Origin: an uncultured Acidobacteriota bacterium
GTDB taxonomy: Bacteria > Acidobacteriota > Vicinamibacteria > Vicinamibacterales > SCN-69-37
DNA length: 64,000 nucleotides
Reading direction: 5' to 3'
NCBI GenBank assembly: GCA_963751445.1
Contig: CAVVUL010000008.1
Span: 130,555-194,554, forward strand
A program made the position numbers and the translations under genes. Below are positions 1,970 to 26,089 of the stretch, piece after piece. The notes beneath the pieces are model-generated. The model made no database searches, was not told where the DNA came from, and was given only the letters and a program-made list of their open reading frames with translations. Every line of letters starts with the position of its first letter. Positions within the stretch are counted from its first letter, which is position 1.

Positions 1970-3197
1970 TGCCGCGCGACCTTCGTGAACAGATCCATGT
2001 ACTTCGCCACCTGGGCGCGCCGATCGAAGCCGAGGCCGGCGGCGCGCGCATTCGCGCCGAATCGCGTCCTCAGGTCCCGGTCGGCGTAGAACGTACGAAT
2101 GCGCTCCGCCAGCGCCGCGGCGTCGCCCGGTTCGGCCACAAGGCCGCACTGGCGCGTCGTCGTCAGGCTCGCCACTTCGCACGTCTCTTCTACTGCCGCG
2201 ACGTACGGACGACCCGCGGCCAGAATGCCATACAGCTTGCTGGGCACGATGTATCCCGCCAGGCCCCGCTGGAGCGACACGACGAACACGTCGGCCGACG
2301 CAAACGACTCGCCGAGCCGCTCTTTCGGCGTGAACGGCAGGAAGAGTCACGTTCGTCAGGCCGAGCATCTGCACCTGTGCCTGAAGTTCGGCTTTCTTCA
2401 CGCCCTCGCCGACGAACACGACTTTGAGATCCGGCAGGTCCTTCAGCAGTGCGGCGGCGCTGACGATGGTCTCGAGGTTCTGGGAGAGGCCCATGTTGCC
2501 GGAATGCATGACGACGAACGCGTCGGCGAGTCCGTGCGCTTCCGAGAACGGATTGCGCTTCGGCCCTGGCGCGATGGCCGTGGTGTCCGCCCAGTCCGCA
2601 GATGACCGTCGTCTTCTCCGGCGGCGCGCCCTTGTTCTCGATCAGCCGCTGCCGCATCGTGTCGCCAATCGCGACGTTCATGGCCGCGCGGCGCACGAGA
2701 AAGCGGTTGACCCGCTGCAGGAGGCCGTTGATGGTCTCGCTGTGGAAGTCCGGCAGCAGCACCGCGACTTCGGGAAACAGATCCTTGAACGCCATGACCA
2801 GCGGCGCACCGGAATGCGTTTGCCGGCGAGCCCGCGGACAGGCCGATGATCGGCGGATCGGTCAGCGCCACGACGACGTCCGGGCGATCGAGGCGCAGGC
2901 CGGCCCAGCGTGGCGGACAGGAAATACGTCACGTAGTTCGTCGCGCGGCCGGCGAAGCGGCGTTTGTCGAAGCGCGTGCCGCGCGCGCGGCGAATCTCGA
3001 CGCCGTGTGTGGTCCTCGCGCCGGCGGGCGTTGACGCGCAACCGCTCCGCGCCGGCCACCGGCACGAGCGGAGGCCCGGCCACCACCGACACGCGGCAGC
3101 CGTACTCGCGGACCAGATCCTCGCAGAGGTCGGTCAGCAACTGGCCCGTCGCCGTCGTGTCCGGATAGTAGGACCGGTTGAAGAACGCGATATGCAC
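1966..3197 (-). CDS. GT-B (GT4-like) glycosyltransferase, read across at least 4 frame breaks
   Basis: GTG at 3197 with GGAG 5 nt upstream. Fragments seen: VHIAFFNRSYYPDTTATGQL (frame of ORF 2862-3776), FKDLFPEVAVLL..RFLVRRA (2190-2795), MHSGNMGLSQNLE..KVVFVGEG (1358-2509 frame) and VPSKLYGILAAGRPYVA (1966-2289). Confidence 0.7.
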
Positions 3198-3255
3198 GAT
3201 GTCTCCAGTGTGCCGCAGTAGTCGGCGGCCTTCAGGCGCCGACTCGAGCGCTTCT

Positions 3256-3283
3256 CCGGCGGGCTGAAGCCCGCCGGCTACTG
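3256..3283 (-). repeat. REP-type hairpin family 1, copy a (CAGTAG + CCGGCGGGC-TTCA-GCCCGCCGG on the minus strand)
   Basis: Plus strand reads CCGGCGGGCTGAAGCCCGCCGGCTACTG: a 9-bp perfect stem with a 4-nt loop. The TAG inside CAGTAG is the stop codon of the carbamoyltransferase (3278-3280). Confidence 0.8.
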
Positions 3284-5046
3284 CGGTACGCCCTTCACGA
3301 TCGCCGTATTCCCCATTACCAGCACGTCCATCCGCGTGCGCAGGAAGCAATCGAGCGCTTCGGCGGGCTGGAGGACGATCGGTTCGTTCTCGTTGAACGA
3401 GGTGTTCAGGACGACGGGACGCCCGTTTCGCCGCTCGAACGCGCGGATGAGCGCCCAGTAGCGGCGGATTGCCGTCTCTGTCGACCGTCTGCAGGCGTCC
3501 GATGCCATCCACGTGGGTTACCGCCGGAATGACGGCCCGCTTGTCGGCCCGCACCGGATAGACCTGCATCATGAACGGGTCCGGCACCGCGCCCTCGAAG
3601 TAGTCGGCCCGTGACTCCTCGACGCACCGATGGCGCGAACGGGCGGAACTTCTCGCGGAACTTGATCTTCGTGTTGATGATCTCGCGCATGTCGGCGCGG
3701 CGGGGATCGGCCAGGATGCTGCGATTGCCCGAGCGCCCGCGCGCCCCACTCCATGCCGGCCCTGGAACCAGCCCACGACCTGGCCCTCCGCGATGTAGCG
3801 AGCCGTCCAGGTCGCAGGTCGTCATCGCTGGTGAACGGCAACGTCTGGCACCGCGCGGCGCAGAGGTCGTCGCCGCGCGCCTCAGGGCGGCATCGACTGT
3901 CGGCCGCCGAGAACTCCGGCCCCCAGTAGCCGTGCGCATCGACGAAGCCGCGCGGCTGCCCGAGCACCTGATTCCAGACCCAGTAGGCCGCGCCGAGCGC
4001 CGTGCCGTTGTCGCCGGCCGCCGGCTGGATGTAGACCTCCCGGAACGGCGTGCGCTCGCGGATCTTGCCGTTGGCGACGCTGTTCATCGCGCAGCCGCCC
4101 GCCAGACAGAGACGCGGCGACGGCATGCGCGCGTGCAGGCCGTTCAGGACATGGAACGCGGCGTCCTCGAACACGGCCTGCAGCGACGCGGCGATGGCCT
4201 CGTGCGCGCGCCGTCAGCGGCGCGTCCCCGGCGCGCGCGGGTCCGAGCATGCGTCTCGAGCTTCGGCGCTGAACACGCGCTCGAGCTTCGGCTCCCCATC
4301 GTCCCACGTCATGCCCGCGCCACCGGACCAGTGCGGAGAAGTACGAGAGGTCGAGCTCGAACAGGCCGCCCGGTTTCAGCCGAATCAGATGGCCGAATCT
4401 CGCGCGCGAACTCCGGCCGGCCGTACGGCGCAAGGCCCATCACCTTGAATTCGTCGCCGAACTTCGTGAAGCCGAGGTACTGCGTGAGCGCCAGATACAG
4501 GACGCCCAGCGAGTGCGGATAGAACGTGCGGTGCACGACGTCGAGCGACCGGTCATGGCCGTGCGCCCACGAGGTGGACACGAAGTCGCCGAAGCCGTCG
4601 ATCGCGCAGACCGCCGCCTCCTCGAACGGCGACACGAAGAAGGCGCTCGCCAGATGCGCCGGGTGGTGCTCGACCCAGTGCACGTGCGGACGCGGGTCGG
4701 ATCCGGACAAGCCGAGCACGCCGGCGAGCGTGTCCGGGATTTCGCCGACGCGCCGATAGTTCGCGGCGCGATCGCGCACGAGCCCGGCGCCCGGCCGGTG
4801 GGTCGCGGCGAAGAGAACCTTTCGCCACAGATGCGCGCGCGGATTCCGTGAGACGCCGACGTGATGCACATCGCGGCCTGATATGCCGCCCTCGCGCAGG
4901 CATTCGAGGATGGCCCGCTCCGGAAATCCCGCGACGTGCTTGATGCGCCGGAAGCGCTCTTCCTCGACGGCGGCTACCAGCTCGCCGTCGCGCACGAGCA
5001 CCGCGGAGACGTCACCGTGATACGCGTTGATGCCGAGGATGTTCAT
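3278..5046 (-). CDS. Carbamoyltransferase (NodU/CmcH family), at least 4 frame breaks
   Basis: N-terminus MNILGINAYHGDVSAVLVRDGELVAAVEEERFRRIKH (tail of ORF 4309-5799). Internal fragments in ORFs 3882-4433, 3569-4174 and 3406-3939. C-terminus VVLNTSFNENEPIV (ORF 3278-3508). ATGA overlap with the asnB-family stop at 5043-5046. Confidence 0.8.
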
Positions 5047-6995
5047 GACGCGCGCACGCCCTGCCGATCGAGCCACGCGTTCAGCGCGACCAGGACCCAC
5101 ACCCGGCTCCACGTCACGCCCGCCTCGCGGCGCAGGAATCGCGCCCACAGCCCAGACGCGGCGCCCGGCCTGAGGATGCCGCGGCCATCCAGTCCGCGGT
5201 CGCCCAGCTGCGCGTCGCAGAACGTCCGCAACGGTCCGCGCATCCATGTGTCGAACGGCAGCGCGAAGCCGCGTTTCGGCTGGTGGACGATGGCCCCGGG
5301 CAGCGGCCGTTCGAGACTCTTCACCAGCAGCGATTTCGGCGTGACCCCGCCCGACTTGAGTGCGTCCGGCAGCGACACCACGTACGACGCCAGGCGATGG
5401 TCCAGCAGCGGCACACGCACCTCGAGGCCGTGCGCCATGCTCATCTGATCCGTGTCCCGCAGCAGCACGTCGTGCATGTAGGCGGCCGACTCGGCGTACG
5501 AAATGCGCGCCCACAATCCGGCGTCGCTGAATTCCTCGAACGCCTGCGCGAGCATGGCCACGTAGGTATTGGCCGCGGCCTCGTCTGGCACGTCGCGCGC
5601 GAGCAGCACATCGCGCCGATCGCCGGCGGACAGCACCTGCCGCGTGAGCGGCCAGATTTCCGCGAGCGAGCCGTCGGTTTCGAGGACCGCCGCGGCTTTC
5701 TCGGCGGCCACGCCGCCCCGGCTGGCTCTTCGCAGCATCTTCGCGGCGGCCTGGCGCATGACGACCGGCGACTGGCTCATGCGGCGCGCGGCCGGCCACA
5801 GGCGGCTCAGTCGCTGGAAGGACGGATACCCGCCGAAGATCTCGTCGCCGCCCAGACCGGACAGCGCCACCTTCAGGCCGCGGTCGTGCGCGGCCTTCGA
5901 CACGACGAACGTGTTGAGGCCGTCACCGCTCGGATGATCGACGGCCGACAGCGCGCCGGGCAGCATGCCCACGATGTCCGATCCGCGCAGGCGGATCTCG
6001 GCGTGGTCGGTGCCGAACGCCTCGGCGACCGCGCGCGCCGCCGCGGATTCGTCGGCCGCCGCATCCTCGTCGAGCCCGACTGTGAATGTACGAGGCGTGA
6101 CGCCCAGCGACCGCAGCGTGGACACGAGCGCGCCGGAATCGATGCCGCCGGACAGGAACACGCCGACCGGCACGTCGCTCACGAGGTGCGACTGGACGGC
6201 CTCACGCAGGAGGTCGCCCACGCGGCTCAGCGCCGCGGGCTCGGACACCGGGCCTTTACTTTCTTGGATTTCGCTGGGGCCGCGCGACTCGCGCGTGTCG
6301 CCCGCCAGCAGCGACCAATATCGCCGCGTCGTCATCTGCCCGCGCGCGCTCACGTCCATCACGTGGCCGGGCTCGAGCATGCGGACGTCGCGCAGCAGCG
6401 TCGTTGGCGTCGGCGCGGTCTGATGGCCGAGGTAGTGCCACAGGCTGCCCGTGTCCAGATCCGGCCGAACGAGACCGGACGCGAGGAGCGCGCGCACTTC
6501 AGAGGCAAACACGAAGTGCTGCGGGCCGCGATGGTAGTACAGCGGCTTGATGCCGAACCGGTCGCGCGCCAGCAGCAACCGGTCCTGCGCCGCGTCCCAC
6601 AGGCCGAACGCAAACATTCCGTCGAGGTGATCGACGACCGATGGGCCCCAGTGCTGGTAGCCGGCGAGCAGCACTTCGGTGTCCGACTCGGACGTGAACG
6701 CCGCGCCGTGCTCGCGCAGCCGACTTCGCAACGCGCGGTAGTTGTAGATCTCGCCGTTGTACGACACCGCCGTGCGATCGCGCGCCATCGGCTGTCGTCC
6801 GCCGTCTGACAGATCGATGATGGCGAGCCTGGTGTGGCCGAGCGCGACGACACTGCCCGAGGCCGTCGATGCGTGCCACTGCCCTTCGCCGTCCGGACCG
6901 CGATGCTTCAGCGCGGGCAGCATCGCCTCCACGACACGCCGCGCCGGCGCGTCCTCCGCCGAATCGAACATCAGCACGCCCGCGATGCCGCACAT
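5043..6995 (-). CDS. Asparagine synthase family glutamine amidotransferase (AsnB/WbpS-like), intact 650 aa
   Basis: MCGIAG Ntn-amidotransferase N-terminus and the SGGIDS PP-loop motif. Uninterrupted ORF. Confidence 0.9.
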   Translation of the reverse strand: MCGIAGVLMFDSAEDAPARRVVEAMLPALKHRGPDGEGQWHASTASGSVVALGHTRLAIIDLSDGGRQPMARDRTAVSYNGEIYNYRALRSRLREHGAAFTSESDTEVLLAGYQHWGPSVVDHLDGMFAFGLWDAAQDRLLLARDRFGIKPLYYHRGPQHFVFASEVRALLASGLVRPDLDTGSLWHYLGHQTAPTPTTLLRDVRMLEPGHVMDVSARGQMTTRRYWSLLAGDTRESRGPSEIQESKGPVSEPAALSRVGDLLREAVQSHLVSDVPVGVFLSGGIDSGALVSTLRSLGVTPRTFTVGLDEDAAADESAAARAVAEAFGTDHAEIRLRGSDIVGMLPGALSAVDHPSGDGLNTFVVSKAAHDRGLKVALSGLGGDEIFGGYPSFQRLSRLWPAARRMSQSPVVMRQAAAKMLRRASRGGVAAEKAAAVLETDGSLAEIWPLTRQVLSAGDRRDVLLARDVPDEAAANTYVAMLAQAFEEFSDAGLWARISYAESAAYMHDVLLRDTDQMSMAHGLEVRVPLLDHRLASYVVSLPDALKSGGVTPKSLLVKSLERPLPGAIVHQPKRGFALPFDTWMRGPLRTFCDAQLGDRGLDGRGILRPGAASGLWARFLRREAGVTWSRVWVLVALNAWLDRQGVRAS

Positions 6996-17061: not shown

Positions 17062-19242
17062 TCACCGGGTCCGAACGTACGCCCGGGTGTAGTCCTTGCG
17101 GTAATACTGCGCGTAGTAGTACGCGTGCCGATCGACGTGGACCCGGTTGAGCACGACGCCGATGATCTTCGCGCGCGCCGCGATCAACTGGTCGACCGCG
17201 ACCTGCGCCGTCTGCCGGGGCGTCATCTCGGCCCCCACGACGAAGACGACGCCGCCGACGCCGTTCGAGACGACCGCCGCGTCCGTCACCGCCATCACCG
17301 GCGGCGCGTCCACGATGATCCAGTCGTACTCCTTGCCGAGTTCGGCGAGCATGTTCAGGTACTTCTTCGAGCCGAGCAACTCGGCCGGGTTCGGCGGAAT
17401 GAGTCCGGCCGGCAGCACGGAGAGGAACGGATTGCCGGTCTTGCGGATCGCGGTCTGCAACGACACCGACCCCACCAGCACGTTCGACAAGCCCGGCTCC
17501 TGCGAGAACCCGAATGTCTCGTGGATGCGCGGCCGGCGCAGGTCGCCGTCGATGATCAAGGTGCGTTGCTCAGCCTGCGCCATGGCCTCGGCCAGATTGC
17601 TGGCCACGACCGTCTTGCCCTCGCTCGGCGCCGTGCTCGTGATCATGACGCTGCGCGCGCCTTCCGCCGCCGTCGAGAAGATGACCGCCGTCCGCAGGCC
17701 GCGGATCGCTTCCGAGAACGAGGCGGGCACGCCGCGCTCCAGCAGCGGCGAGGGCCCCTTGATCTGCTTCGGCTTGACGGCCGGAATCATGCCGAGGAAC
17801 GGCAGGCCCAGATGCGTCTTGATGTCATCGGGCGTCTTGATGCGGCTGTCGATGTACTCCAGACCGAACGCGAGACCGAGCGCCAGCAGGAACCCCGTCA
17901 TGAGGGCGAAGAGCACGTCGCGTTCGTGATTCGGCAGCACCGGCACGCGCGGGATCTCCGCGGCATCGATGACCTGGACGTTCGTGCCCTTGTACTCGCC
18001 CGTCACGCCCGTGACCTTCGCCCGCTGCATCAGGTCGTCGAACAGCTGCCGGTTGCTGACGACGTCACGCTCGAGCTCCAGGTAGCCAATCGCAACGCTG
18101 TCCTGGTTGAGCGACTCGTTCTTCTGGGCGCGGAGCTGGTCGTTCAGCGCGTCTTCACGCGCCTTGGCCATCTGGTATTCGCTGCCGATCGACTCGACGA
18201 CCTTGTTGACCTGCGATTCGAGGTCGGCCTGCTTCGTCGTGAGGCTCTGCGCGATGTCACGCCGCTTCTGGTAGGCCGGCCCGAAATCGGCCGCCAGCAC
18301 GGCGTCCTGGCTCCTGAGCTCGGCGATCTCCTTGCTGAGCGCCTGGATCGACGCGTTCGACATGATGGCGGGGAACGTGGCCAGCTTGGCCGGGTCGGCG
18401 CGAAGGCTGGTCAACGTCCGGAACAGTTGTTCTTTCTCCAGGCGTTGACTGCGCGCACGTGTGAGTTCCGCGCTGATGTCCGCCAGCCGCTGGACGATGA
18501 TGTTGTTCCGGGGATCGGTCAGCGCGACCGCGCCGTGCTGGACCTTGAAGGCCTGCAGCGCCTGCTCGCTCTGCTCGAGTTTCTGCTTCTGCTCTTCGAG
18601 TTGCGCGCTGAGGAAGTTGTTGGCGTCCTGGGAGACCAGCGCGCGGAAGCTGAGGCCCTGCGCAATGTACGCCTGCGCGACCGCGTTCGCCGCGCGCGAG
18701 GCAAACGCCGGATCGGCGGACCGGTAATGGATCTTCACCAGGCGGCTGTTCCGGACCGGCTCGATCGTCAGCCCGCTGAGGAAGCTGTCGAGACGCGCCG
18801 ACTGCCAGCCGGTTTCGTTGCCGGCGGGCGGCACCATTGCTTTCGGCGCGCCGAGCAGCGTGGCGACCTGTCCGAGCCAGCCGCCCTGGCTGGCGCGCGC
18901 GGTGGCCTCCGCGATGTCCTGCCGCTCCGCTTCGGACGGCGGCTGCCCCATCCCGAGCGACTCAATCGTGCGCCATGCGAGCGCCCGGCTCTGCATCATC
19001 CGGTACTGCGTCTGGTAGAAGTCGTCGTCGAACCACCCGTCCTGCTCCTGCAGCAGCGAATTGAGGGGCGTGCGGTGCGCGTCTTTCTCGATGAGGAGCT
19101 GGGTGGTCGCTTCGTAAATCGGGGTTTTGCGCAGGCTCGTCGTCGCCGCAGTCAGGAAGACCAGCAGGAACGCCGAGCCGGCGACCCAGCGCCGCTTGTA
19201 GATCACCCGCAGGTAGTCGGTCAGATGGCGCGGATGGGTCAT
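17062..19242 (-). CDS. Polysaccharide co-polymerase / BY-tyrosine kinase (Wzc/GumC-like), intact 726 aa
   Basis: N-terminal Wzz-type TM plus a coiled-coil periplasmic region. Walker A STAPSEGKT, then DGDLRRP. C-terminal Tyr cluster HAYYYAQYYRKDYTRAY. Confidence 0.9.
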   Translation of the reverse strand: MTHPRHLTDYLRVIYKRRWVAGSAFLLVFLTAATTSLRKTPIYEATTQLLIEKDAHRTPLNSLLQEQDGWFDDDFYQTQYRMMQSRALAWRTIESLGMGQPPSEAERQDIAEATARASQGGWLGQVATLLGAPKAMVPPAGNETGWQSARLDSFLSGLTIEPVRNSRLVKIHYRSADPAFASRAANAVAQAYIAQGLSFRALVSQDANNFLSAQLEEQKQKLEQSEQALQAFKVQHGAVALTDPRNNIIVQRLADISAELTRARSQRLEKEQLFRTLTSLRADPAKLATFPAIMSNASIQALSKEIAELRSQDAVLAADFGPAYQKRRDIAQSLTTKQADLESQVNKVVESIGSEYQMAKAREDALNDQLRAQKNESLNQDSVAIGYLELERDVVSNRQLFDDLMQRAKVTGVTGEYKGTNVQVIDAAEIPRVPVLPNHERDVLFALMTGFLLALGLAFGLEYIDSRIKTPDDIKTHLGLPFLGMIPAVKPKQIKGPSPLLERGVPASFSEAIRGLRTAVIFSTAAEGARSVMITSTAPSEGKTVVASNLAEAMAQAEQRTLIIDGDLRRPRIHETFGFSQEPGLSNVLVGSVSLQTAIRKTGNPFLSVLPAGLIPPNPAELLGSKKYLNMLAELGKEYDWIIVDAPPVMAVTDAAVVSNGVGGVVFVVGAEMTPRQTAQVAVDQLIAARAKIIGVVLNRVHVDRHAYYYAQYYRKDYTRAYVRTR

Positions 19243-20051
19243 ACGATCCTCGCTCCGACCTTGATGATGTCGCCGGGCTTCACGACGTCCGTCATCTTCA
19301 CGTTCTTGAGCGTCACGGTCTTGCCGTCCACCTTGCGGATGATCTCGATCCGCTTGGGCGACCCGCGATCGGTGAACCCGCCGGCCAGCGCGAGCGCCTG
19401 CTCGACGGTGGACCCGGACTCGACGTTGTACACGCCGACGTTGCGCACCTGGCCGGTGATCGTCACGGCCTGCGCCTTCTTCACGAACACCGTGTCACCG
19501 TCCTGCAGCACGAGGTTCTTCGCGAGCGCGCCGCTTTCCAGTTCGCGGACGTCCACTTCAATCACGGCGCCCGCGTCGCCGCTCTGCAGCGACGCGGCCC
19601 GGACCACCACGACGACGTCCGACGCCTCCGGCAGGCGCCCGCCGGCGCGCAGAAGCGCTTCGAGCAGCGTCAGCTCGCCCGCAAATGCCACGGCGCCCTG
19701 CGTGCGCACGGCGCCGTTCACCAGCACTCTCTTGGTCGGCGTCTGTTCGAGTTCGACCGTCACCTGCGGGTTGAGGACGATGTCCGCTTCCTTCAAGCGC
19801 CGGGCGACCAAATCGCCGACCTCGCGCGCCGTCAGGCCGGACACTTTCAGCCGGCCCACTTGCGGAAACTCAATCGCCCCGTCGATACCAACGGGATATT
19901 TGCCCGTGAACTGCGCGACGCCGACCACCGTGATGGCGAGCTGATCGTGCGGCGCGATCTTCGGATTCGCCTGCCCGGTCACGACCAGGGCTCCGCCCAC
20001 GAGCAGGCACGCCACCAGGGCGCCCACGCGCGACAGGAACCTACCGGCCAT
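19239..20051 (-). CDS. Short outer-membrane polysaccharide export (OPX) protein: PES/SLBB domains only, 270 aa
   Basis: Signal-like N-terminus, polysaccharide-export motif region and two SLBB-like beta-grasp repeats. It ends GDIIKVGARIV, directly after the last SLBB, so there is no Wza-type C-terminal amphipathic helix. ATGA overlap with the PCP gene. Confidence 0.75.
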   Translation of the reverse strand: MAGRFLSRVGALVACLLVGGALVVTGQANPKIAPHDQLAITVVGVAQFTGKYPVGIDGAIEFPQVGRLKVSGLTAREVGDLVARRLKEADIVLNPQVTVELEQTPTKRVLVNGAVRTQGAVAFAGELTLLEALLRAGGRLPEASDVVVVVRAASLQSGDAGAVIEVDVRELESGALAKNLVLQDGDTVFVKKAQAVTITGQVRNVGVYNVESGSTVEQALALAGGFTDRGSPKRIEIIRKVDGKTVTLKNVKMTDVVKPGDIIKVGARIV

Positions 20052-21247
20052 AGACGAACGACCCTCCCATGCGAAGACCCTCGTACTCGCGCAACGGCAG
20101 CGGCGACGTCCGCCGTACGTAGTTTACGTCCAGGCCGACGCGAATCTGGTCACCAATCCGGCGGCCGATGCCGGCGCCGATCAGGTCGACGTAGTCGACC
20201 CGGCCCAGCCGCAGGTCTCCCACCGGCGGGTACGTCAGGGAACCATGGCTGAAGCGGCCCACGACGTCCCAGCTGAGGCCGATGACCTCCATCGCCTGCG
20301 CGCCCACCGTGGCGGTGACGTAGTAGGGCTCGGCCAGAATCCAGCGAGTAGTCCACGTCCCGCTTCACGATGCCGGACAGCCGGAACCAATCCATGGCGA
20401 CGTAGGTCAGGTCCACGTCCGCGACCCAGCCCGTGTAGTCCGGCTGGTCGGGGCTGATCGTCATGAAGCGCCGCACGCCCACGTAGGCGCTCCCGGAGAT
20501 CAGGGCGAAGGGCTTGAAGATCACGCCAGGCATCACCCGGACGCTGTCGCTGTCCCGTTCGGGTGTGTAGACGAATCGATCCCGAATCCAGTCGGTGCGA
20601 ATTGCGAAGCTGGTGAGCGGGGTCAGTTCGAACTTGCCGGTCAGATTGATCTCGTCGCTGTCCCGGTTCAAGGCGTTCGCCACGAACGCATCGCCATAGG
20701 TGCCCTGCAGGTAGTCGTAGCGCGTGCGCCTCACGTCCACATCGGCGTCCACCCGGCTGGCCACGTGCAGCATGGCGCCCACCTCGGCGCCGGTGCGCAG
20801 CTCCTGCACCCGCAGATCGATTTCGGCGTTCGGCCGGCGCCGCATGTTGGAATAGACGCCCGCCACGCGCGGGGTCACGCGCGCCAGATCGATATCGACG
20901 CGCAGGTCTTCGCCGTAGCTGAACGATCGTTGCGTGGCCGTCTGTCTGTAGTACAGCCAGTCCGTCGTCGTCTTGCTCGAGATGAGCGCGCGGCCGACCT
21001 GCAGCCATACGTCCGCGCCGGGCAGCACGCTCATCGTCGTGTCGCGGATCGGATTCAGCGGCGCGAGGAACACGTTCGTGTCCACGCCGAGGTTCTGGAT
21101 CGCCAGCCGGGGCGTCACCGCCAGCGGGCCGAAATGGAACATCGCGCTCTGCGACGCTTCCAGCGCCTGGCCCCACGCGAGCGCCGGCATCGCCAGCATG
21201 GCGCAGGCCAGCGGGATCAGTCGGCGGCCGAGTTGTCTCCACTCCAC
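20041..21247 (-). CDS. Predicted outer-membrane beta-barrel protein (one frame break near 20310-20330)
   Basis: GTG at 21247. Signal peptide LACAMLAMPALAWGQ. Long run of alternating hydrophobic/polar strands rich in Y, D, R and T (ORF 20150-21247), continued by ORF 20041-20307. It overlaps the OPX gene start by 11 nt. Confidence 0.6.
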
Positions 21248-21273
21248 CAGGTCGCTACCTTTTATCCGGGAAT

Positions 21274-21294
21274 GGCCCGCCGATCTGGCGGGCC
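21274..21294 (-). terminator. GC hairpin (GGCCCGCC-GATCT-GGCGGGCC) between the small tail-anchored protein gene and the beta-barrel gene
   Basis: Seen directly: 8-bp perfect stem, 5-nt loop, no clear U-tract. Candidate attenuator or pause site. Confidence 0.35.
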
Positions 21295-21301
21295 GCGAAA
21301 C

Positions 21302-21754
21302 CTACTTGCTGTTGCTCCGCTTGACGATCACGATCGCCGCCGCGGCGCCGGCCGCCAGCAGCCAGAGCGCGAGCGGGGCCTTGCCGCAACTGACGTTCAC
21401 ATCAAGCCTGCTGGGCACGGCCGTCGTCAGGGCGTAGGGCCCCTCGGTGCACACGATCTTCTTCTCTTTGACCTGCACGAGTTCGATCAGGTAGGTCCCG
21501 GGGACCGTCGATTTGAGGAAGCTGAATTGACCCTGCGGGTCGAGGGGCTGCGTGTTCGCGACCACGCCGCTGGCCACGTCGCGCAACTGGACCACGTAGT
21601 CCGCGTACGGCTTCTTGGCCTCGTCTGTCGCCTTGCCGGCAATCGTGCCCGGCGCGGCCTGGCCGAACGCCGGTTGGACGCCGGCCGCAAGACACACCAC
21701 AAGCAGGGCGGCCACGACCCGGTTGACGCGGTGGGTTGGGACGGTCTGCCTCAC
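21302..21754 (-). CDS. Small exported protein with a carboxypeptidase-regulatory-like beta-sandwich and a C-terminal TM helix plus basic tail
   Basis: I chose GTG 21754 (GAAGGGAAG upstream) over the ORF-track start 21829. Signal peptide VVAALLVVCLAAGVQPAFGQA. Middle pattern GxIxGKxxD...GQFSF..VPGTYLIEL. It ends GKAPLALWLLAAGAAAAIVIVKRSNSK. Confidence 0.55.
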   Translation of the reverse strand: MRQTVPTHRVNRVVAALLVVCLAAGVQPAFGQAAPGTIAGKATDEAKKPYADYVVQLRDVASGVVANTQPLDPQGQFSFLKSTVPGTYLIELVQVKEKKIVCTEGPYALTTAVPSRLDVNVSCGKAPLALWLLAAGAAAAIVIVKRSNSK

Positions 21755-21839
21755 GACTTCCCTTCTGCCTTCTGCTCGGACCCTGCCGTCCCTTTCATCT
21801 TCCGGCCGGCCCGAGCGGGTGTCAAGCACGCCACCACGC

Positions 21840-21881
21840 CTGTATCGTTTCAGCGACAGCGGCGTACCCGTTTCGATACAG
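21840..21881 (-). promoter_or_regulatory. Inverted repeat CTGTATCG-N26-CGATACAG abutting the stop codon of the EBP-like gene
   Basis: Seen directly: plus strand CTGTATCG at 21840-21847 and CGATACAG at 21874-21881. Either a weak terminator or a protein-binding palindrome upstream of the 21754 gene. Confidence 0.3.
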
Positions 21882-23337
21882 CTACTTCCGAGGCGACAGC
21901 AGCGCGCGCGACACGTTCAGCTGCCGCACCTTTCGATAGAGATTCGTCCGCTGAAGCCCCAGCGCCTTGGCGGCATCACCCACGCGGCCGCTGTGCCGGA
22001 TGAGCGTGGCGCTGATGCACTCGCGCTCGAAGCGCGCGCGGGCTTCCCGCAGCGTCATCGCGCCGCCGGCGGGCTCGCTGGGCCCGGCGTCGAGGCTCAC
22101 GTGCTCCAGCACGTTCTCGAGCTGGATGACGGGCTGTGACGTGGCCTTCACGGCCGCGGTGACCGCGTCGCGCAACTCTCTCGCGTTCCCCCGCCACGGC
22201 AGCGCGGCCAGCAGGGCCAGCGCCAATCGGCTGAAGCGTTTCGAATCCGCCGCCTTCCGTGTCGCACGCGCGCTTGAGGAAGTACGCCGCCAGCAGCGGC
22301 ACGTCCTCGCGCCGGCGCCGCAGCGGCGGCATGTCGACGCGCACCTGGGCGAGCCGCTCGAACAAGTCGCGGCGCAGGCGCCCGTCCGCCATCGCCTCGT
22401 CCACATCCGGCCCGGCGACCGCAATCGGCCGGAAGTCGAGCGGAATCGTTTCCTGCAGGTCGACGGAGAACACTTCCCTGTCGCGCAGCAGTTGCGCCAG
22501 GCGCGTCTGAATCCTCGCGGGGGCGTCCACGACGTTGAGAAGGAGCAGCGAACCGCCCTGCGCCGCGATCACGGCGCTCGTTCGCGTCGCCTGCACGGCC
22601 AGCCCGGACGCCGCATCGTGGTCGGTGACGGCGCCGAACAGGCGCCGTTCGAGTTCATTCGGCCCTTCGGCGGCGCAGTCCACCATGGCGAGCGGCCGGG
22701 TCACGTAATCATGATCGCGCTCGTGCAGCGTGCGGGCCACGAGCTGCCGGCCGGAACCGTCTTCGCCGCTGATCAGGACAGCGGTCCGGCGCGATGCGGC
22801 GGACTTCAGTCCCGCGGAGACCATCCGCATCGACGCGGAATACTCGAACAGGCGTTCCGTCGCGCCCGGCGCCGCCGGCGACGGGTCAACCGCGACGGCA
22901 TCCCGGGCCGCCGCAAACACGATGGCCACGTCCCGCTCGTCGAACGGCCACGGCAACAGGTCGGTCGCGCCGGCATAGATGGCTTCGCTCGCGACCAGCG
23001 GCTGCGTGGTGTCCATCAAGCCGATGACCGGCACGGCCGGGAACTGCGCGCAGATGAGCCGGACCGCGGCAATCGAGGTGCGCTCGGTCGCCAGGTCCAC
23101 GACGACGAGGCCGAATCGCCGCGCGCCCAGCGCCTGCAGCGCACCCGGCACGTCGTCGGCCACGGTCACGAGGGCGCCTGCCTTGGTCAGGCGATCGCGA
23201 ACCAGGACGCGATCGCGGACACGAGCCGGCAGATAGAGCACCGCCAACGGCGACTGTCCGTCCGCATGGGTGGACGGTGCGTCCTGACCGGGTAGCCGGA
23301 CGCGTCTCAAGAAGGGCTGGGGATTCGCTGCCATCAA
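21882..23337 (-). CDS. NtrC-family-like regulator (receiver-like / AAA+ / HTH) with degenerate catalytic motifs; one frame break near 22260
   Basis: ORF 21976-23337 plus ORF 21882-22424. It carries PPLRRRREDVPLLAAYFL, ALPWRGNARELRDAV and a C-terminal HTH (GDAAKALGLQRTNLYRKVRQL). However, Walker A reads GEDGSGRQ, the sigma-54 contact loop reads GAVTDH and Walker B reads LLLLNVVD. Confidence 0.8.
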
Positions 23338-23948
23338 CGTTTTGCTTTCGGAGTAGGCACGGGTTGGAAGACGCCGTCGCCGTCTGGATCGGATTCCACG
23401 GCCGTCACGTGACCGGCCGCGTCGTACCGCAGCCGCTGCGTCGGGCGGCCCTTACCGAGCAGGTCCAGGTCCACCTGGGCCAGCACGCCTCGCTCGTAGG
23501 TTTCCCACTTGTCGGGACGCCCATCCGCATCGGTGTCGTCCACGACGCGCTGGATCGCGCCGTCCACGTAGAATTCGCGCCGCGTGATCGTCTGGCCGGC
23601 GCCGTTCGCCTCGTCGGCGTGATCGATGAGGTTCGAGGCCGGAGCCGCGCCGCTGGCGGGTGACGAACCGTAGTATTCCCAACGGTCCGGCCGTCCATCG
23701 CCGTTACGGTCGATTTCGATGTATTTGATGACTGCGCCATCCATGAACGCCCGCGTCTCGTTGCGGCCGTCGTGATCGCGGTCCGACAGCAGCTGTTCGA
23801 GCCAACCTGTTTGCTGGTTGTAGACAGGCGAAATGCCGTTGGCCGCCAACTGGTCGCCCGGGCGGCTGGATCCGCACGCCGCCGCCGCAACCAGCGCGGC
23901 GGCTGTGAGCACCACGTCTGCGATGCGCCGAAGACTCGTCACGGACAT
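23334..23948 (-). CDS. Lipoprotein with four DxDxDG (EF-hand-like) loops, intact 204 aa
   Basis: Lipobox AAAACGS after a signal peptide. Loops are DRDHDGRNE, DRNGDGRPDRWE, DTDADGRPDKWE and DPDGDGVFQ. Two have Glu at loop position 12. ATGA overlap with the regulator gene (23334-23337). Confidence 0.7.
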   Translation of the reverse strand: MSVTSLRRIADVVLTAAALVAAAACGSSRPGDQLAANGISPVYNQQTGWLEQLLSDRDHDGRNETRAFMDGAVIKYIEIDRNGDGRPDRWEYYGSSPASGAAPASNLIDHADEANGAGQTITRREFYVDGAIQRVVDDTDADGRPDKWETYERGVLAQVDLDLLGKGRPTQRLRYDAAGHVTAVESDPDGDGVFQPVPTPKAKR

Positions 23949-24009
23949 GTGATTACCTGACCAGGCGCGGAGGATTCCGCATGTGGCTTCGCCCCGTCAC
24001 TTACAGGGC

Positions 24010-24055
24010 GCGTCGCGCGAGCGACGCGTCCGCCGAAGCCTCGCGCGAAGGCGGA
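24010..24055 (-). terminator. Two adjacent GC-rich hairpins in the spacer between the NusG paralog and the lipoprotein gene
   Basis: Seen directly: GCGTCGC-GCGA-GCGACGC (24010-24027) and TCCGCC-N15-GGCGGA (24029-24055), followed by REP family 1 copy b. Confidence 0.35.
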
Positions 24056-24077
24056 CGGCCGACTACGTGCACTGCTT

Positions 24078-24105
24078 CCGGCGGGCTAAAGCCCGCCGGC
24101 TACTG
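24078..24105 (-). repeat. REP-type hairpin family 1, copy b
   Basis: Plus strand CCGGCGGGCTAAAGCCCGCCGGCTACTG, with flanking CGG(C/T)ACG shared with copy a. It lies 12 nt downstream of the NusG-paralog stop. Confidence 0.8.
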
Positions 24106-24117
24106 CGGCACGAGATC

Positions 24118-24687
24118 CTAGTACGCCCGCACGTCGGCGGCGTCGACTTCCACGCTGACGCCCTGGCCAATCAATCCGACGCTCAGCACCAGCCGCGCGT
24201 GGGCGCCTTTGCGCACGAGCTTTCCGACGACGCCCTTCAGGACGCCCGACACGACTTCCACCTGGCTGCCCTCATTGAGCAGCGGGCACGGGTCGAACTG
24301 CAGGTCGCTCATGACCAGCGTCCGAATGGCGTCAATCTCTTCTTCTGGAATCGTCGCGGCGCGGCCGTCAAACGACACGACGTTGGCCACCCCCGCGCAG
24401 CTCAGCACCGCCCGGAACTGCTCGACGTGCAGCCGCGCGAAGCAATAGCCTTGAAACAGCGGCCAGTCGATCCGCTTGCGGCGGTCCTTCCACCGGCTCC
24501 ACCTCGGAATCGTGGGCAAAAAGGCTTCGAGGCCCTTCCGCGTCAACTGGTCCCGCACCGTCGCTTCGTGGCGGGACTTGGTCCGAATCGCGAACCACCC
24601 GACGGTCTGGTCCAGGGATTCGCTGGCGGCTCCCCGTGAAAGGCCGGTCGAGGCCGGCGTGTGCGGGTCGAAGGAATTGGTATCCAT
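24118..24687 (-). CDS. NusG paralog (NGN + KOW; UpxY/RfaH/LoaP-type specialised antiterminator candidate)
   Basis: WFAIRTKSRHEATVRDQL..GLEAFLP...WPLFQGYCFARL matches the NGN domain. GSQVEVVSGVLKGVVGKLV matches KOW. Start moved to ATG 24687 because the ORF-track GTG 24717 sits inside the sigma-54 promoter spacer. Confidence 0.8.
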   Translation of the reverse strand: MDTNSFDPHTPASTGLSRGAASESLDQTVGWFAIRTKSRHEATVRDQLTRKGLEAFLPTIPRWSRWKDRRKRIDWPLFQGYCFARLHVEQFRAVLSCAGVANVVSFDGRAATIPEEEIDAIRTLVMSDLQFDPCPLLNEGSQVEVVSGVLKGVVGKLVRKGAHARLVLSVGLIGQGVSVEVDAADVRAY

Positions 24688-24708
24688 CGTGGGCCATCGA
24701 TGAGAGAG

Positions 24709-24723
24709 GCAACCCACGTGCCA
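24709..24723 (-). promoter_or_regulatory. Sigma-54 (-24/-12) promoter TGGCACG-N4-TTGC
   Basis: Minus strand reads TGGCACGTGGGTTGC, a full match to the consensus core. It is intergenic, with the -12 element ending 21 nt upstream of ATG 24687. Confidence 0.75.
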
Positions 24724-24829
24724 GAACGGGGCGGCATGACCGCCAGAGCTGCCGTGTCTCCAACTACTTGCGTCGTAACGTGTTTGATACGGGGGGCGGT
24801 ATCCGTTTCGTCTCGGCCGCGCGCTCGCC

Positions 24830-24867
24830 CTGACACCGAAAGCCGGACGGCATGTCAGATTTGTCAG
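24830..24867 (-). promoter_or_regulatory. Candidate upstream activator sequence: three copies of hexamer CTGACA/TGTCAG
   Basis: Plus strand CTGACA 24830-24835, TGTCAG 24853-24858 and TGTCAG 24862-24867. These form an inverted repeat with N17 plus a direct repeat with N3, about 105-145 bp upstream of the -24 element. Confidence 0.4.
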
Positions 24868-24893
24868 CCGCGCAACAATTTGGCGAGGAGACC

Positions 24894-25619
24894 TTACACG
24901 ACGTCTCCGGGGCCGGTTGGCTCGTCATCCGGTTGCGGCCCCTTGCTTCGGGCGTAGAGATAGGAGGCCAGGAAGATCACGCCGATCACCACAAGGGAGA
25001 CGTTTCTCGGCATTTCCCAGCCGATCCAGTGCTCCGCGTGCGCGTATTCGAGCAGCAGTTTCGCGCCCACCCACGCAATGATGATGAAGGCGCCGTCCAC
25101 GATCGCGGGATACCGGCGAATCAAGGCGATCAACTTCCCCGCCACCACGCGCATCGCGATGATGCCGAGGATGCCGCCGGTCACGACGACCGCGATCTTG
25201 GGTGACAGGGCGACGGCCACGAGGATCGAATCGACCGAGAAGGCGATGTTGATGAATTCGACGCGGACGATCGTCGCCCAGAACGCCGAGAGGCCCCACA
25301 TCGGCCTCGCCGCGGCGATGGGCCTTCCCGACTCGCCGGCGTCCCCATGCCGGAAGTGCTGCACGGCCAGATACAAGAGGTAGGCGCCGCCCGCGAGTTT
25401 GACCCAGGCGGCCTGAATGAGGACCGCCGCGAGCAGGACGGCGATGAATCGGAAAATGAACGCGGCGACGAGACCGTAGCGGAGCGCGCGGCTTTGCTGC
25501 GGTCGGGGCAGGCCCATGACCAGAATGGCCATGACCAGCGCGTTGTCCGCGCTCAGGAGGCCTTCCAGCAGCACCAGCAGGCCGATGGTCGGGAGGTCGC
25601 TCAGGGCAATGTCGAACAC
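24894..25619 (-). CDS. TerC family integral membrane protein
   Basis: LLEGLLSADNALVMAILV and repeated hydrophobic helices. I prefer GTG 25619 (GGAGG 8 nt upstream) to the ORF-track start 25709. Confidence 0.8.
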   Translation of the reverse strand: MFDIALSDLPTIGLLVLLEGLLSADNALVMAILVMGLPRPQQSRALRYGLVAAFIFRFIAVLLAAVLIQAAWVKLAGGAYLLYLAVQHFRHGDAGESGRPIAAARPMWGLSAFWATIVRVEFINIAFSVDSILVAVALSPKIAVVVTGGILGIIAMRVVAGKLIALIRRYPAIVDGAFIIIAWVGAKLLLEYAHAEHWIGWEMPRNVSLVVIGVIFLASYLYARSKGPQPDDEPTGPGDVV

Positions 25620-25689
25620 GTTCGGCGCCTCCAAGTATGGGCGCAGTGCCCCGCTCGTGTCATGCGCGGCCCGGCGCGCGGAACACGAC

Positions 25690-25710
25690 CTTGACACGTT
25701 CCGTATCAAT
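25690..25710 (+). promoter_or_regulatory. HAIR-like inverted repeat CTTGACA-N7-TATCAAT overlapping the -35 element
   Basis: The core TTGA-N11-TCAA has the same spacing as the HspR operator consensus CTTGAGT-N7-ACTCAAG. It matches 5/7 and 4/7 positions in the two arms. Confidence 0.4.
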
Positions 25711-25719
25711 GCCTATATT
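25691..25719 (+). promoter_or_regulatory. Sigma-70-type promoter TTGACA-N17-TATATT for hspR
   Basis: Seen directly: TTGACA at 25691-25696 and TATATT at 25714-25719 with a 17-nt spacer, in an AT-rich island of a GC-rich genome. The ATG at 25731 is only about 5 nt beyond the expected transcription start. Confidence 0.65.
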
Positions 25720-25730
25720 CGGATCAGCGT

Positions 25731-26089
25731 ATGGATCGACGGACGCCCGACTGGGTTTTGATCAGCATGGCCGCCGAACTGCTGGAGATGCATCCGCAGA
25801 CGCTGCGGAAGTACGAGCGGCTCGGCCTCGTGCGCCCGCCCCGCACGCTCGGCAGCATGCGCGTGTATTCGCGCCACGAACTCGACCGCCTGCGCCTGAT
25901 CAAGATCGCTGGTCGATGACGCCGGGATCAATCTGGCGGGCGTCCGGCGGCTGCTGTCGATCGTGGACATCGCCGAACGGATGCGGCCGCTCGTGCGGCG
26001 GCCGAAGCGGCGATCGGACGCCCAGGATCAGCTCGATCCGGGAGGTCCAGGAGTTGTGCCGCCTGCTGGGCCTGGAGGACGCGCGCTAG
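25731..26089 (+). CDS. hspR: MerR-family heat-shock regulator HspR (at least 2 frame breaks)
   Basis: ISMAAELLEMHPQTLRKYERLGLVRPPRT.GSMRVYSRHELDRLRLIK is the MerR/HspR HTH. It continues as LVDDAGINLAGVRRLLSIVDIAERM in another frame and ends EVQELCRLLGLEDAR-stop at 26089. Confidence 0.75.

Follow-up and report, generated by a model that had tools for sequence, protein, structure and literature searches.

What can an NtrC-type regulator do once it has lost the residues through which such proteins act on sigma-54 RNA polymerase, in an operon that is itself headed by a sigma-54 promoter? The question is raised by a regulator gene, here called REG, in a stretch of 64,000 nucleotides from an uncultured Acidobacteriota bacterium of the Vicinamibacterales (hereafter the window, meaning the whole stretch). 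On the minus strand of the window the order is terC, a sigma-54 element, upxY, a lipoprotein gene, REG, a gene for a small secreted protein, BBP2_2, Wza-like and Wzc-like genes, a flippase gene and glycosyltransferase genes. The answer we favour, with a probability of roughly 0.55, is that REG is an atypical, sigma-54-independent enhancer-binding protein (EBP), acting on GTATC/GATAC boxes at sigma-70-type promoters of the export genes and of its own operon, with a regulatory cascade in the lineage of the window. REG would then be a candidate master regulator of exopolysaccharide export in the Vicinamibacteria, with predicted binding sites. Vicinamibacteria are abundant in soil and poorly cultured; our literature searches found no study of their gene regulation, and no description of the REG family.

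Motif loss in the regulator and its relatives

We placed the residues of REG by alignment to the structures of NtrX, ZraR, NtrC1 and FleQ, and assigned the receiver residues from the NtrX alignment together with the strand positions of an AlphaFold2 (AF2) model. The domain order first read from the sequence alone, a receiver-like domain followed by AAA+ and a helix-turn-helix (HTH), was recovered by Pfam profiles: Sigma54_activat (PF00158) at 88.4 bits against a cut-off of 20.2, AAA_lid_14 at 32.5 bits on the C-terminal open reading frame against a cut-off of 27, in a region that spans the frameshift described below, HTH_8 at 38.9 bits against a cut-off of 22, and Response_reg at 26.4 bits, under its cut-off of 30.2. 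The AF2 model has a mean predicted local distance difference test score (pLDDT) of 86, with the fold of the pseudo-receiver predicted confidently, and compares with the AAA+ domains of NtrC1, ZraR and PspF at a target-normalised TM-score of ~0.8.

The motifs that the sequence-only reading had called degenerate all stand where it had put them when aligned to NtrX, ZraR and FleQ. The catalytic Asp-Glu of the Walker B motifs of these three proteins aligns to L267-N268 of REG, a loop without homology stands at the GAFTGA position, and Arg has replaced the Walker A Lys. The sensor I Thr-Asn (ATN), on which the sequence-only reading was silent, is lost too, REG having V-A-G. The Walker residues, the sensor I Asn and GAFTGA are needed for ATP hydrolysis and for the remodelling of sigma-54. 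Within the receiver, D81 at the end of beta-3 is the sole survivor among the phosphorylation residues: P-A stands for the acidic pair, a hydrophobic residue for Thr/Ser and W130 for the Lys, which bears out the earlier description of a domain that keeps its Asp, has no acidic pair and carries Trp for Lys. Judged from these residues, the receiver is not phosphorylatable in the usual way, and we rejected a phosphorylatable two-component receiver as a description of REG (only D81 kept, PF00072 below cut-off). The RRDLxERL block is nearly invariant in the family. REG has the sensor II Arg (GNxRE), which no more than 22 of the 63 aligned family members share.

We drew two samples of the family, namely the best 120 of more than 120 homolog clusters (clustered at 90% identity, 47-75% identity) and a 63-sequence alignment. 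The Walker A Lys position holds Arg in 116 of the 120 homologs and Lys in one, and Arg in 62 of the 63 aligned sequences. Neither GAFTGA nor the Walker B Asp-Glu occurs in any of the 120; in the alignment the Glu position is filled by Asn (46 of 63), His (9) or Gly (7), and the loop at the GAFTGA position varies in length. Trp stands at the receiver Lys position in 103/120 homologs and 58/63 aligned sequences, while the acidic pair is P-A/S/G/T and the Thr/Ser position M/I/V in the alignment. Two further regions are strongly kept, the HTH motif QRTNLYRK (119 of 120 homologs, invariant in the alignment) and, within the P-loop, residues G191, E192, G194, G196 and R197, which are invariant or nearly so. 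The orthologs are intact and of ~480 aa, and the homolog clusters with a named source all come from metagenome-assembled genomes (MAGs) of Vicinamibacterales. The substitutions are thus shared by 120 homologs, none of which shows a canonical GAFTGA or Asp-Glu, as expected from the earlier claim that they are not indel noise of this contig. On this evidence REG represents a conserved atypical EBP family of Vicinamibacteria and other Acidobacteriota, from soil and sediment. The contact loop for sigma-54, both catalytic residues of Walker B, sensor I and the Lys of Walker A are missing as a fixed trait of the family, and sigma-54 activation is therefore almost certainly beyond REG, as the sequence-only reading had thought probable.

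We additionally scanned species-representative genomes for the motif state of their EBP-like regulators. The readable regulators in polysaccharide synteny all carried GExGxGR and x-N/H/Q, short forms devoid of a P-loop excepted; the canonical EBP neighbours and alphaproteobacterial NtrX carried GxxGxGK and LDE. The short forms are proteins of 300-350 aa that have no receiver (L041, L044, L051, L053, L059 and L065, in our numbering of related loci) and whose P-loop is destroyed (AExGLDx); in three of them (L044, L051, L065) the L1 region is deleted as well. The HTH is the same in every one of them, and GTATC boxes lie close by. The family shows a graded decay, with a pseudo-receiver, then loss of the ATPase motifs, then loss of the P-loop and L1 region, while the DNA-binding helix and the likely operator stay fixed throughout.

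Two observations on family members stand apart from this series. A tandem duplicate of the degenerate regulator is found in L033 (6001-8138) and L047 (6001-8105), the second copy in L033 having His at the Walker A Lys position (GEPGTGH). The contigs of L006 and L020, which carry the REG locus, are filed under Bifidobacterium breve / Bifidobacteriaceae MAGs, probably through bin contamination or mislabelling.

Boxes, promoters and the role of the regulator

Reading aligned promoters, we recognised short GTATC/GATAC boxes as candidate operators. Paired-box sites occur at only two places in the window, 24763-24803 and an internal promoter-like region, P2, just downstream of REG. In 18 related loci the region upstream of the REG operon (P1) shows, on the sense strand, the pattern GTATC-N14-20-GTATT-N2-8-TTGACA, with a -10-like hexamer ~16 nt on (TACAAT, TAGAAT). 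The same pattern was found 0 times on the antisense strand and 0 times in 29 NtrX control loci. P2 consists across loci of GTATC, then GATAC-N16-18-TTGAC-N17 and a -10-like hexamer, which is GAAGAT in the window, L003 and L004 alike. Within 240 nt after the REG stop codon the pattern GATAC-N14-22-TTGA[CT] is present in 15/42 loci (window match 21821-21846); elsewhere it gave 10 matches in ~1 Mb (~0.01 per kb), and 9 in 691 kb of control loci. The boxes sit upstream of the -35 elements, not across them. In loci with a sigma-54 promoter they recur, 24 in number versus 5.0 +/- 2.2 in shuffles, at 59-84 nt from the -24 element on its upstream side. An exact-dyad search upstream of the lipoprotein and upxY genes found no 5-mer inverted repeat shared across loci, and on the minus strand between 19000 and 25000 there was no further promoter-like or terminator-like site.

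The sigma-54 promoter itself is, by its conservation, genuine for the TerC-linked lineage to which the window belongs. The corresponding site in L001, L003 and L004, all TerC-linked, holds a -24/-12 element that agrees with the consensus at 9-10 of 10 positions (in L001 directly in front of REG), and the element picked out by the sequence-only reading is thus real. The proposed pairing of a sigma-54 promoter with a catalytically dead EBP does not extend to the family: a recognisable -24/-12 element heads the operon in ~12-13 of 43 loci and a sigma-70-type promoter in 18, and in one closely related group (L008, L010, L013, L016 and L045) a -24/-12 element follows immediately after a sigma-70-type promoter, so that these loci are ambiguous. 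The sigma-54 promoter is limited to some lineages, chiefly the TerC-linked one of the window. The suggestion that REG competes at CTGACA sites (24830-24867) also failed, and we rejected these sites as REG operators, since they are not conserved outside the TerC-linked relatives and the GTATC/GATAC boxes are conserved instead. In the TerC-linked relatives the CTGACA region is loosely kept as a block resembling aTCACA-n-TTCCGTaaGC, absent elsewhere, and it could be an enhancer for a canonical EBP.

REG is the sole DNA-binding protein common to all box-bearing loci, and because its recognition helix is invariant like the boxes, it is the best candidate for the protein that binds them. Since the boxes adjoin sigma-70-type -35 elements at both P1 and P2, REG would act with the housekeeping RNA polymerase, and because a second promoter of this type follows the REG gene, in the window included, its main task is probably at sigma-70-type promoters. 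We therefore favour a regulator that would retain the EBP fold, the oligomerisation scaffold and the invariant Fis-type HTH after the loss of ATP hydrolysis and sigma-54 contact. Such a protein would bind the boxes at P1, upstream of its own operon, and at P2, ahead of the genes for the small protein, beta-barrel, Wza and Wzc, and would, in the manner of VpsR, tune the housekeeping RNA polymerase at these promoters, probably as an activator. In the lineage of the window P1 is instead the sigma-54 promoter, which would be fired by a separate canonical EBP, giving a cascade in which the canonical EBP and sigma-54 would drive upxY-lipoprotein-REG, and REG in turn the export genes from P2. What the data show directly is the conserved loss of motifs, the synteny, and where and how far the boxes are enriched; box binding by REG, the direction of regulation and the cascade are all three steps that we infer. 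The same boxes precede sigma-70-type promoters in most lineages and a sigma-54 promoter in that of the window, which makes sigma-class switching directly testable.

Several points weigh against this interpretation. Each strict pattern is matched by only ~1/3 to 1/2 of the loci, and the sigma-70-type calls use an E. coli-like consensus, which may not be that of the Acidobacteriota. Inverted repeats are the usual targets of NtrC-type HTHs, yet many P1 sites are direct repeats. In the window itself P1 has a degenerate -35 element, so that the favoured explanation does not account for a role of REG at its own sigma-54 promoter. L001 and L005 contain REG without adjoining export genes. Finally, a factor encoded elsewhere, other than REG, could bind the GTATC boxes.

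A further, less likely possibility, which is compatible with the favoured explanation, is that REG senses a nucleotide or second messenger: its GxxGxGR P-loop would bind cyclic di-GMP (c-di-GMP), or ATP/ADP that is not hydrolysed, and the bound ligand would control oligomerisation or the contact with DNA, VpsR, FleQ and TyrR being the models. The strict conservation of this loop suggests a retained ligand of nucleotide type. The regulated genes make and export polysaccharide, the production of which is a classic c-di-GMP output. The single observation that points to c-di-GMP specifically is the presence of GGDEF genes within ~4 kb of REG in 8 loci. In seven of these (L006, L008, L010, L013, L016, L040 and L045) a GGDEF diguanylate cyclase gene lies between a canonical EBP gene and lipoprotein-REG, that of L040 (3774-5006) having an N-terminal sensory region; in L020 it lies ~3.4 kb upstream of REG, and no canonical EBP was detected at this locus. 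One REG-neighbour GGDEF gene scored 169 bits on TIGR00254. The 64-kb window yielded no GGDEF gene to tblastn with the query used, and some family members have no P-loop whatever. A comparison with the c-di-GMP contacts of FleQ, as the sequence-only reading had envisaged, was negative: R144 (LFRS) has no equivalent, REG having LFEYS in the place of the canonical LIGxS; E330 is replaced by Y352; R334 corresponds to R356, which is variable in the family; and only R185 is conserved (R202 in REG), a residue generic to EBPs (PMC10723142). We consequently rejected REG as a FleQ-type c-di-GMP receptor, given the absent equivalents of R144 and E330 and the variable equivalent of R334 (PMC10723142).

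We consider it unlikely that REG, produced from the sigma-54 operon, is an anti-activator exerting negative feedback at the sigma-54 promoter, damping activation whether by occupying the enhancer boxes or by joining mixed rings of a canonical EBP as a non-catalytic subunit. The location of the boxes at an enhancer-like distance from -24/-12 in the window, L001, L003 and L004 would suit such a role, as would the retention of the trans-acting arginine-finger block in a protein that has lost its cis catalytic residues. A possible partner is also at hand in some loci, as a fully canonical NtrC-type EBP (GETGTGK, GAFTGA, LFLDE, complete receiver) is encoded within ~6 kb of REG in 15 related loci. 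This gives indirect support to the earlier proposal that the true activator is encoded elsewhere; tblastn found no second EBP gene in the 64-kb window. Most family members, however, stand behind sigma-70-type promoters, many have no canonical EBP nearby, and the short forms are wholly devoid of the P-loop and L1 region. Anti-activation is possible for the lineage of the window; it cannot be the general function of the family.

More doubtful is a combined form, in which a canonical EBP and sigma-54 would turn on the operon of REG, and REG, an EBP paralogue devoid of catalysis, would have been retained to modulate the sigma-54 circuit from within, feeding back on the enhancer through the boxes or through mixed rings formed with its retained arginine fingers, and in addition handing over the export genes to a sigma-70-type promoter. 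If this were true, the family would document a promoter-class swap between sigma-70 and sigma-54, in one direction or the other, around an unchanged operator and HTH.

That REG still works as a sigma-54 activator, as the promoter at the head of its operon and its overall EBP fold might suggest, is very improbable, given GAFTGA in 0/120 homologs, the loss of the Walker B Asp-Glu and sensor I Asn, and Arg for the Walker A Lys. Just as hard to credit are motifs degenerate through pseudogene decay or sequencing error in the contig: REG is frameshifted, as is at least one neighbouring gene, but >100 orthologs from independent assemblies, all intact and full-length, carry these substitutions too, and an artefact or a strain-specific lesion could account for the frameshift alone.

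Gene model, locus and neighbouring genes

REG was assembled from two overlapping minus-strand open reading frames, 21976-23337 and 21882-22424, which jointly encode one NtrC-like protein. The sequence-only reading had taken its motifs as lying in well-aligned, in-frame sequence. The motif substitutions are real, but one frameshift, at about 22245-22262, interrupts the gene. The ortholog consensus is one residue shorter than our initial merge of the two frames across the shift, which suggests one surplus G in GGCGGCGG. A second indel lies within 3 kb, in the BBP2_2 beta-barrel gene (20047-21301), which is frameshifted at ~20335 (minus strand; tblastn frames -1 then -2), and assembly indel noise is therefore the likely cause of the REG frameshift. 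In the public annotation of the source contig, REG appears only as a truncated frame of 452 aa (P0001). Comparison with the orthologs makes the ATG at 23334, which shares bases with the stop codon of the lipoprotein gene upstream (TGATG), the more likely start codon, because M2 is nearly invariant among them. The features are collected in Table 1.

The order lipoprotein, REG, (small protein), BBP2, Wza, Wzc is kept in ~34 of 45 related loci. The lipoprotein partner has no match in Pfam, NCBIfam or PDB. The position of P2 would place the start of the small secreted protein at the GTG at 21754, and not at 21829. The top sigma-70 consensus match in the region, TTGACA-N17-TATATT at 25691-25719 on the plus strand (11/12 positions), falls within the 5' part of terC, a minus-strand gene, and could serve as a divergent promoter.

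We identified a conserved leader element upstream of the lipoprotein or REG genes (L002-L047), which is present on the sense strand in 31 of 47 related loci and on the antisense strand in none. It contains GCGAAGC, which forms a very stable DNA mini-hairpin, and possibly the element recruits the UpxY/NusG-like antiterminator in the manner of an ops site. Rfam gave no match in the region 21000-26000, the leader element included. A GC-rich hairpin, GCCGGCGGGC-TTTA-GCCCGCCGG at 24078-24100 (minus strand), stands directly after the upxY stop codon; it has no T-tract, and may be a pause or attenuator site read through by the antiterminator.

Among the related loci, L012 has at 2400-3884, directly after its canonical EBP gene, an open reading frame of 494 aa with repeats of the RPxDxRDRPQ type and a high content of Arg, Pro and Asp. 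In L030 (~5600-6000) and L031 (~4700-5000) a sigma-factor region-4-like peptide (…ESRVSQLHARAIQRLRAAL…) is encoded upstream of REG, and a perfect TGGCACCCACGTTGC element was noted at these loci ~1.25 kb upstream of REG.

Table 1. Features of the REG locus, in coordinates of the window.
Feature	Position	Strand	Remarks
REG regulator gene	21882..23334	-	~484 aa after frameshift correction; pseudo-receiver, degenerate AAA+ and Fis-type HTH
Pseudo-receiver domain, residues ~30-147	22897..23250	-	Response_reg match, column counts, AF2 strand positions
AAA+ domain (Sigma54_activat), catalytic and sigma-54-contact motifs degenerate	22140..22860	-	Pfam, alignments; NtrX 5m7p is the best structural match
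Walker A GEDGSGRQ, Lys replaced by Arg	22744..22767	-	
L1 loop at the GAFTGA position, GAVTDHDAASGLA	22597..22635	-	Length and sequence variable in family; pLDDT drop
Walker B position, SLLLLNVVD	22525..22551	-	Catalytic Asp-Glu corresponds to L267-N268
Arginine-finger block RLRRDLFERL, kept	22351..22380	-	Columns nearly invariant
Frameshift zone, probably one surplus G in GGCGGCGG	22240..22262	-	Open reading frames, ortholog length, neighbour-gene frameshift
HTH_8 DNA-binding motif (…AAKALGLQRTNLYRKVRQL)	21918..21989	-	38.9 bits
Sigma-54 -24/-12 element TGGCACGTGGGTTGC	24709..24723	-	Heads upxY-lipoprotein-REG
Boxes GATAC-N8-GTATC-N18-GTAGT, candidate REG operators	24763..24803	-	44-80 nt upstream of the -24 element
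P2, internal promoter-like region: GTATC, then GATAC-N16-TTGACA-N17-GAAGAT	21797..21875	-	Just after the REG stop codon
UpxY-family NusG-like antiterminator gene	24118..24687	-	NF033644 114 bits against a cut-off of 100; Pfam NusG match
Conserved leader element GTAAGTGACGGGGCGAAGC	23986..24004	-	Consensus GTAAGTGAsrGGGCGRAGC; ~40 nt upstream of the lipoprotein start codon
Lipoprotein gene, conserved partner upstream of REG	23334..23948	-	Stop codon overlaps the REG start
Export genes: small secreted protein, BBP2_2 beta-barrel (frameshifted), Wza-like, Wzc-like; then flippase, glycosyltransferases	17062..21754	-	

Comparison with known systems

Atypical EBPs such as TyrR, PhhR, HupR, HsfA, NtrX and VpsR have an EBP-like core without a functional GAFTGA and work with sigma-70 RNA polymerase; it has been proposed that they connect, in evolution, sigma-54 with sigma-70 regulation (PMC6158489). 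By its sequence REG fits this functional class, as a distinct, uncharacterised family in which the loss of motifs is more complete.

The best match to REG is NtrX of Brucella and Caulobacter (PDB 5m7n, E 4e-40; top NCBIfam model, NF051870; top Foldseek hit). Both proteins are without GAFTGA, but NtrX keeps the Walker A Lys and Walker B Asp-Glu (GPSGAGK, LYLDEV), whereas REG does not. No NtrY-type kinase gene was noticed beside REG, which, unlike NtrX, lies in a polysaccharide locus, and its score on NF051870 (194.5 bits against a cut-off of 600) excluded it as an NtrX ortholog. We also rejected assignments to the PEP-CTERM-box regulator PrsR (TIGR02915, 173.5 bits against 502.6) and to TyrR (100 bits against 576). 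TyrR, PhhR, HupR and HsfA differ from REG in their N-terminal sensory domains and in their regulons.

VpsR of Vibrio cholerae shares with REG the order receiver, AAA+, HTH and the absence of GAFTGA, and its structure (7v2b) is a significant fold match, although sequence similarity is weak (E 2e-17 over AAA+). VpsR has a phosphorylatable receiver, while that of REG is without the acidic pair, Thr/Ser and Lys, and REG further differs in Arg for the Walker A Lys. VpsR, in which Walker B reads N-D, activates a sigma-70 promoter (PMC6158489). It controls exopolysaccharide (vps) genes; for REG a similar control is proposed, from sites that adjoin a sigma-70-type -35 element. In the lineage of the window REG is, unlike VpsR, transcribed from a sigma-54 promoter, and its binding of c-di-GMP is only hypothetical.

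FleQ of Pseudomonas resembles REG in combining an atypical receiver with an EBP core; it binds c-di-GMP and regulates the pel/psl polysaccharide genes at sigma-70 promoters. FleQ, unlike REG, keeps GAFTGA and both Walker motifs, and it stays a sigma-54 activator. The canonical EBP neighbours, finally, have the same three-domain architecture as REG at 28-32% identity, but with GETGTGK, GAFTGA, LFLDE, a complete receiver and an HTH, LNLKRTTLVEKLKRL, different from that of REG. Among the atypical EBPs in the published descriptions compared, none has, as REG does, a pseudo-receiver together with a Walker A Arg in place of Lys and the disappearance of Walker B as well as sensor I. Only a handful of atypical EBPs have been characterised, and the REG family, of at least 120 clusters at 90% identity, is a large one.

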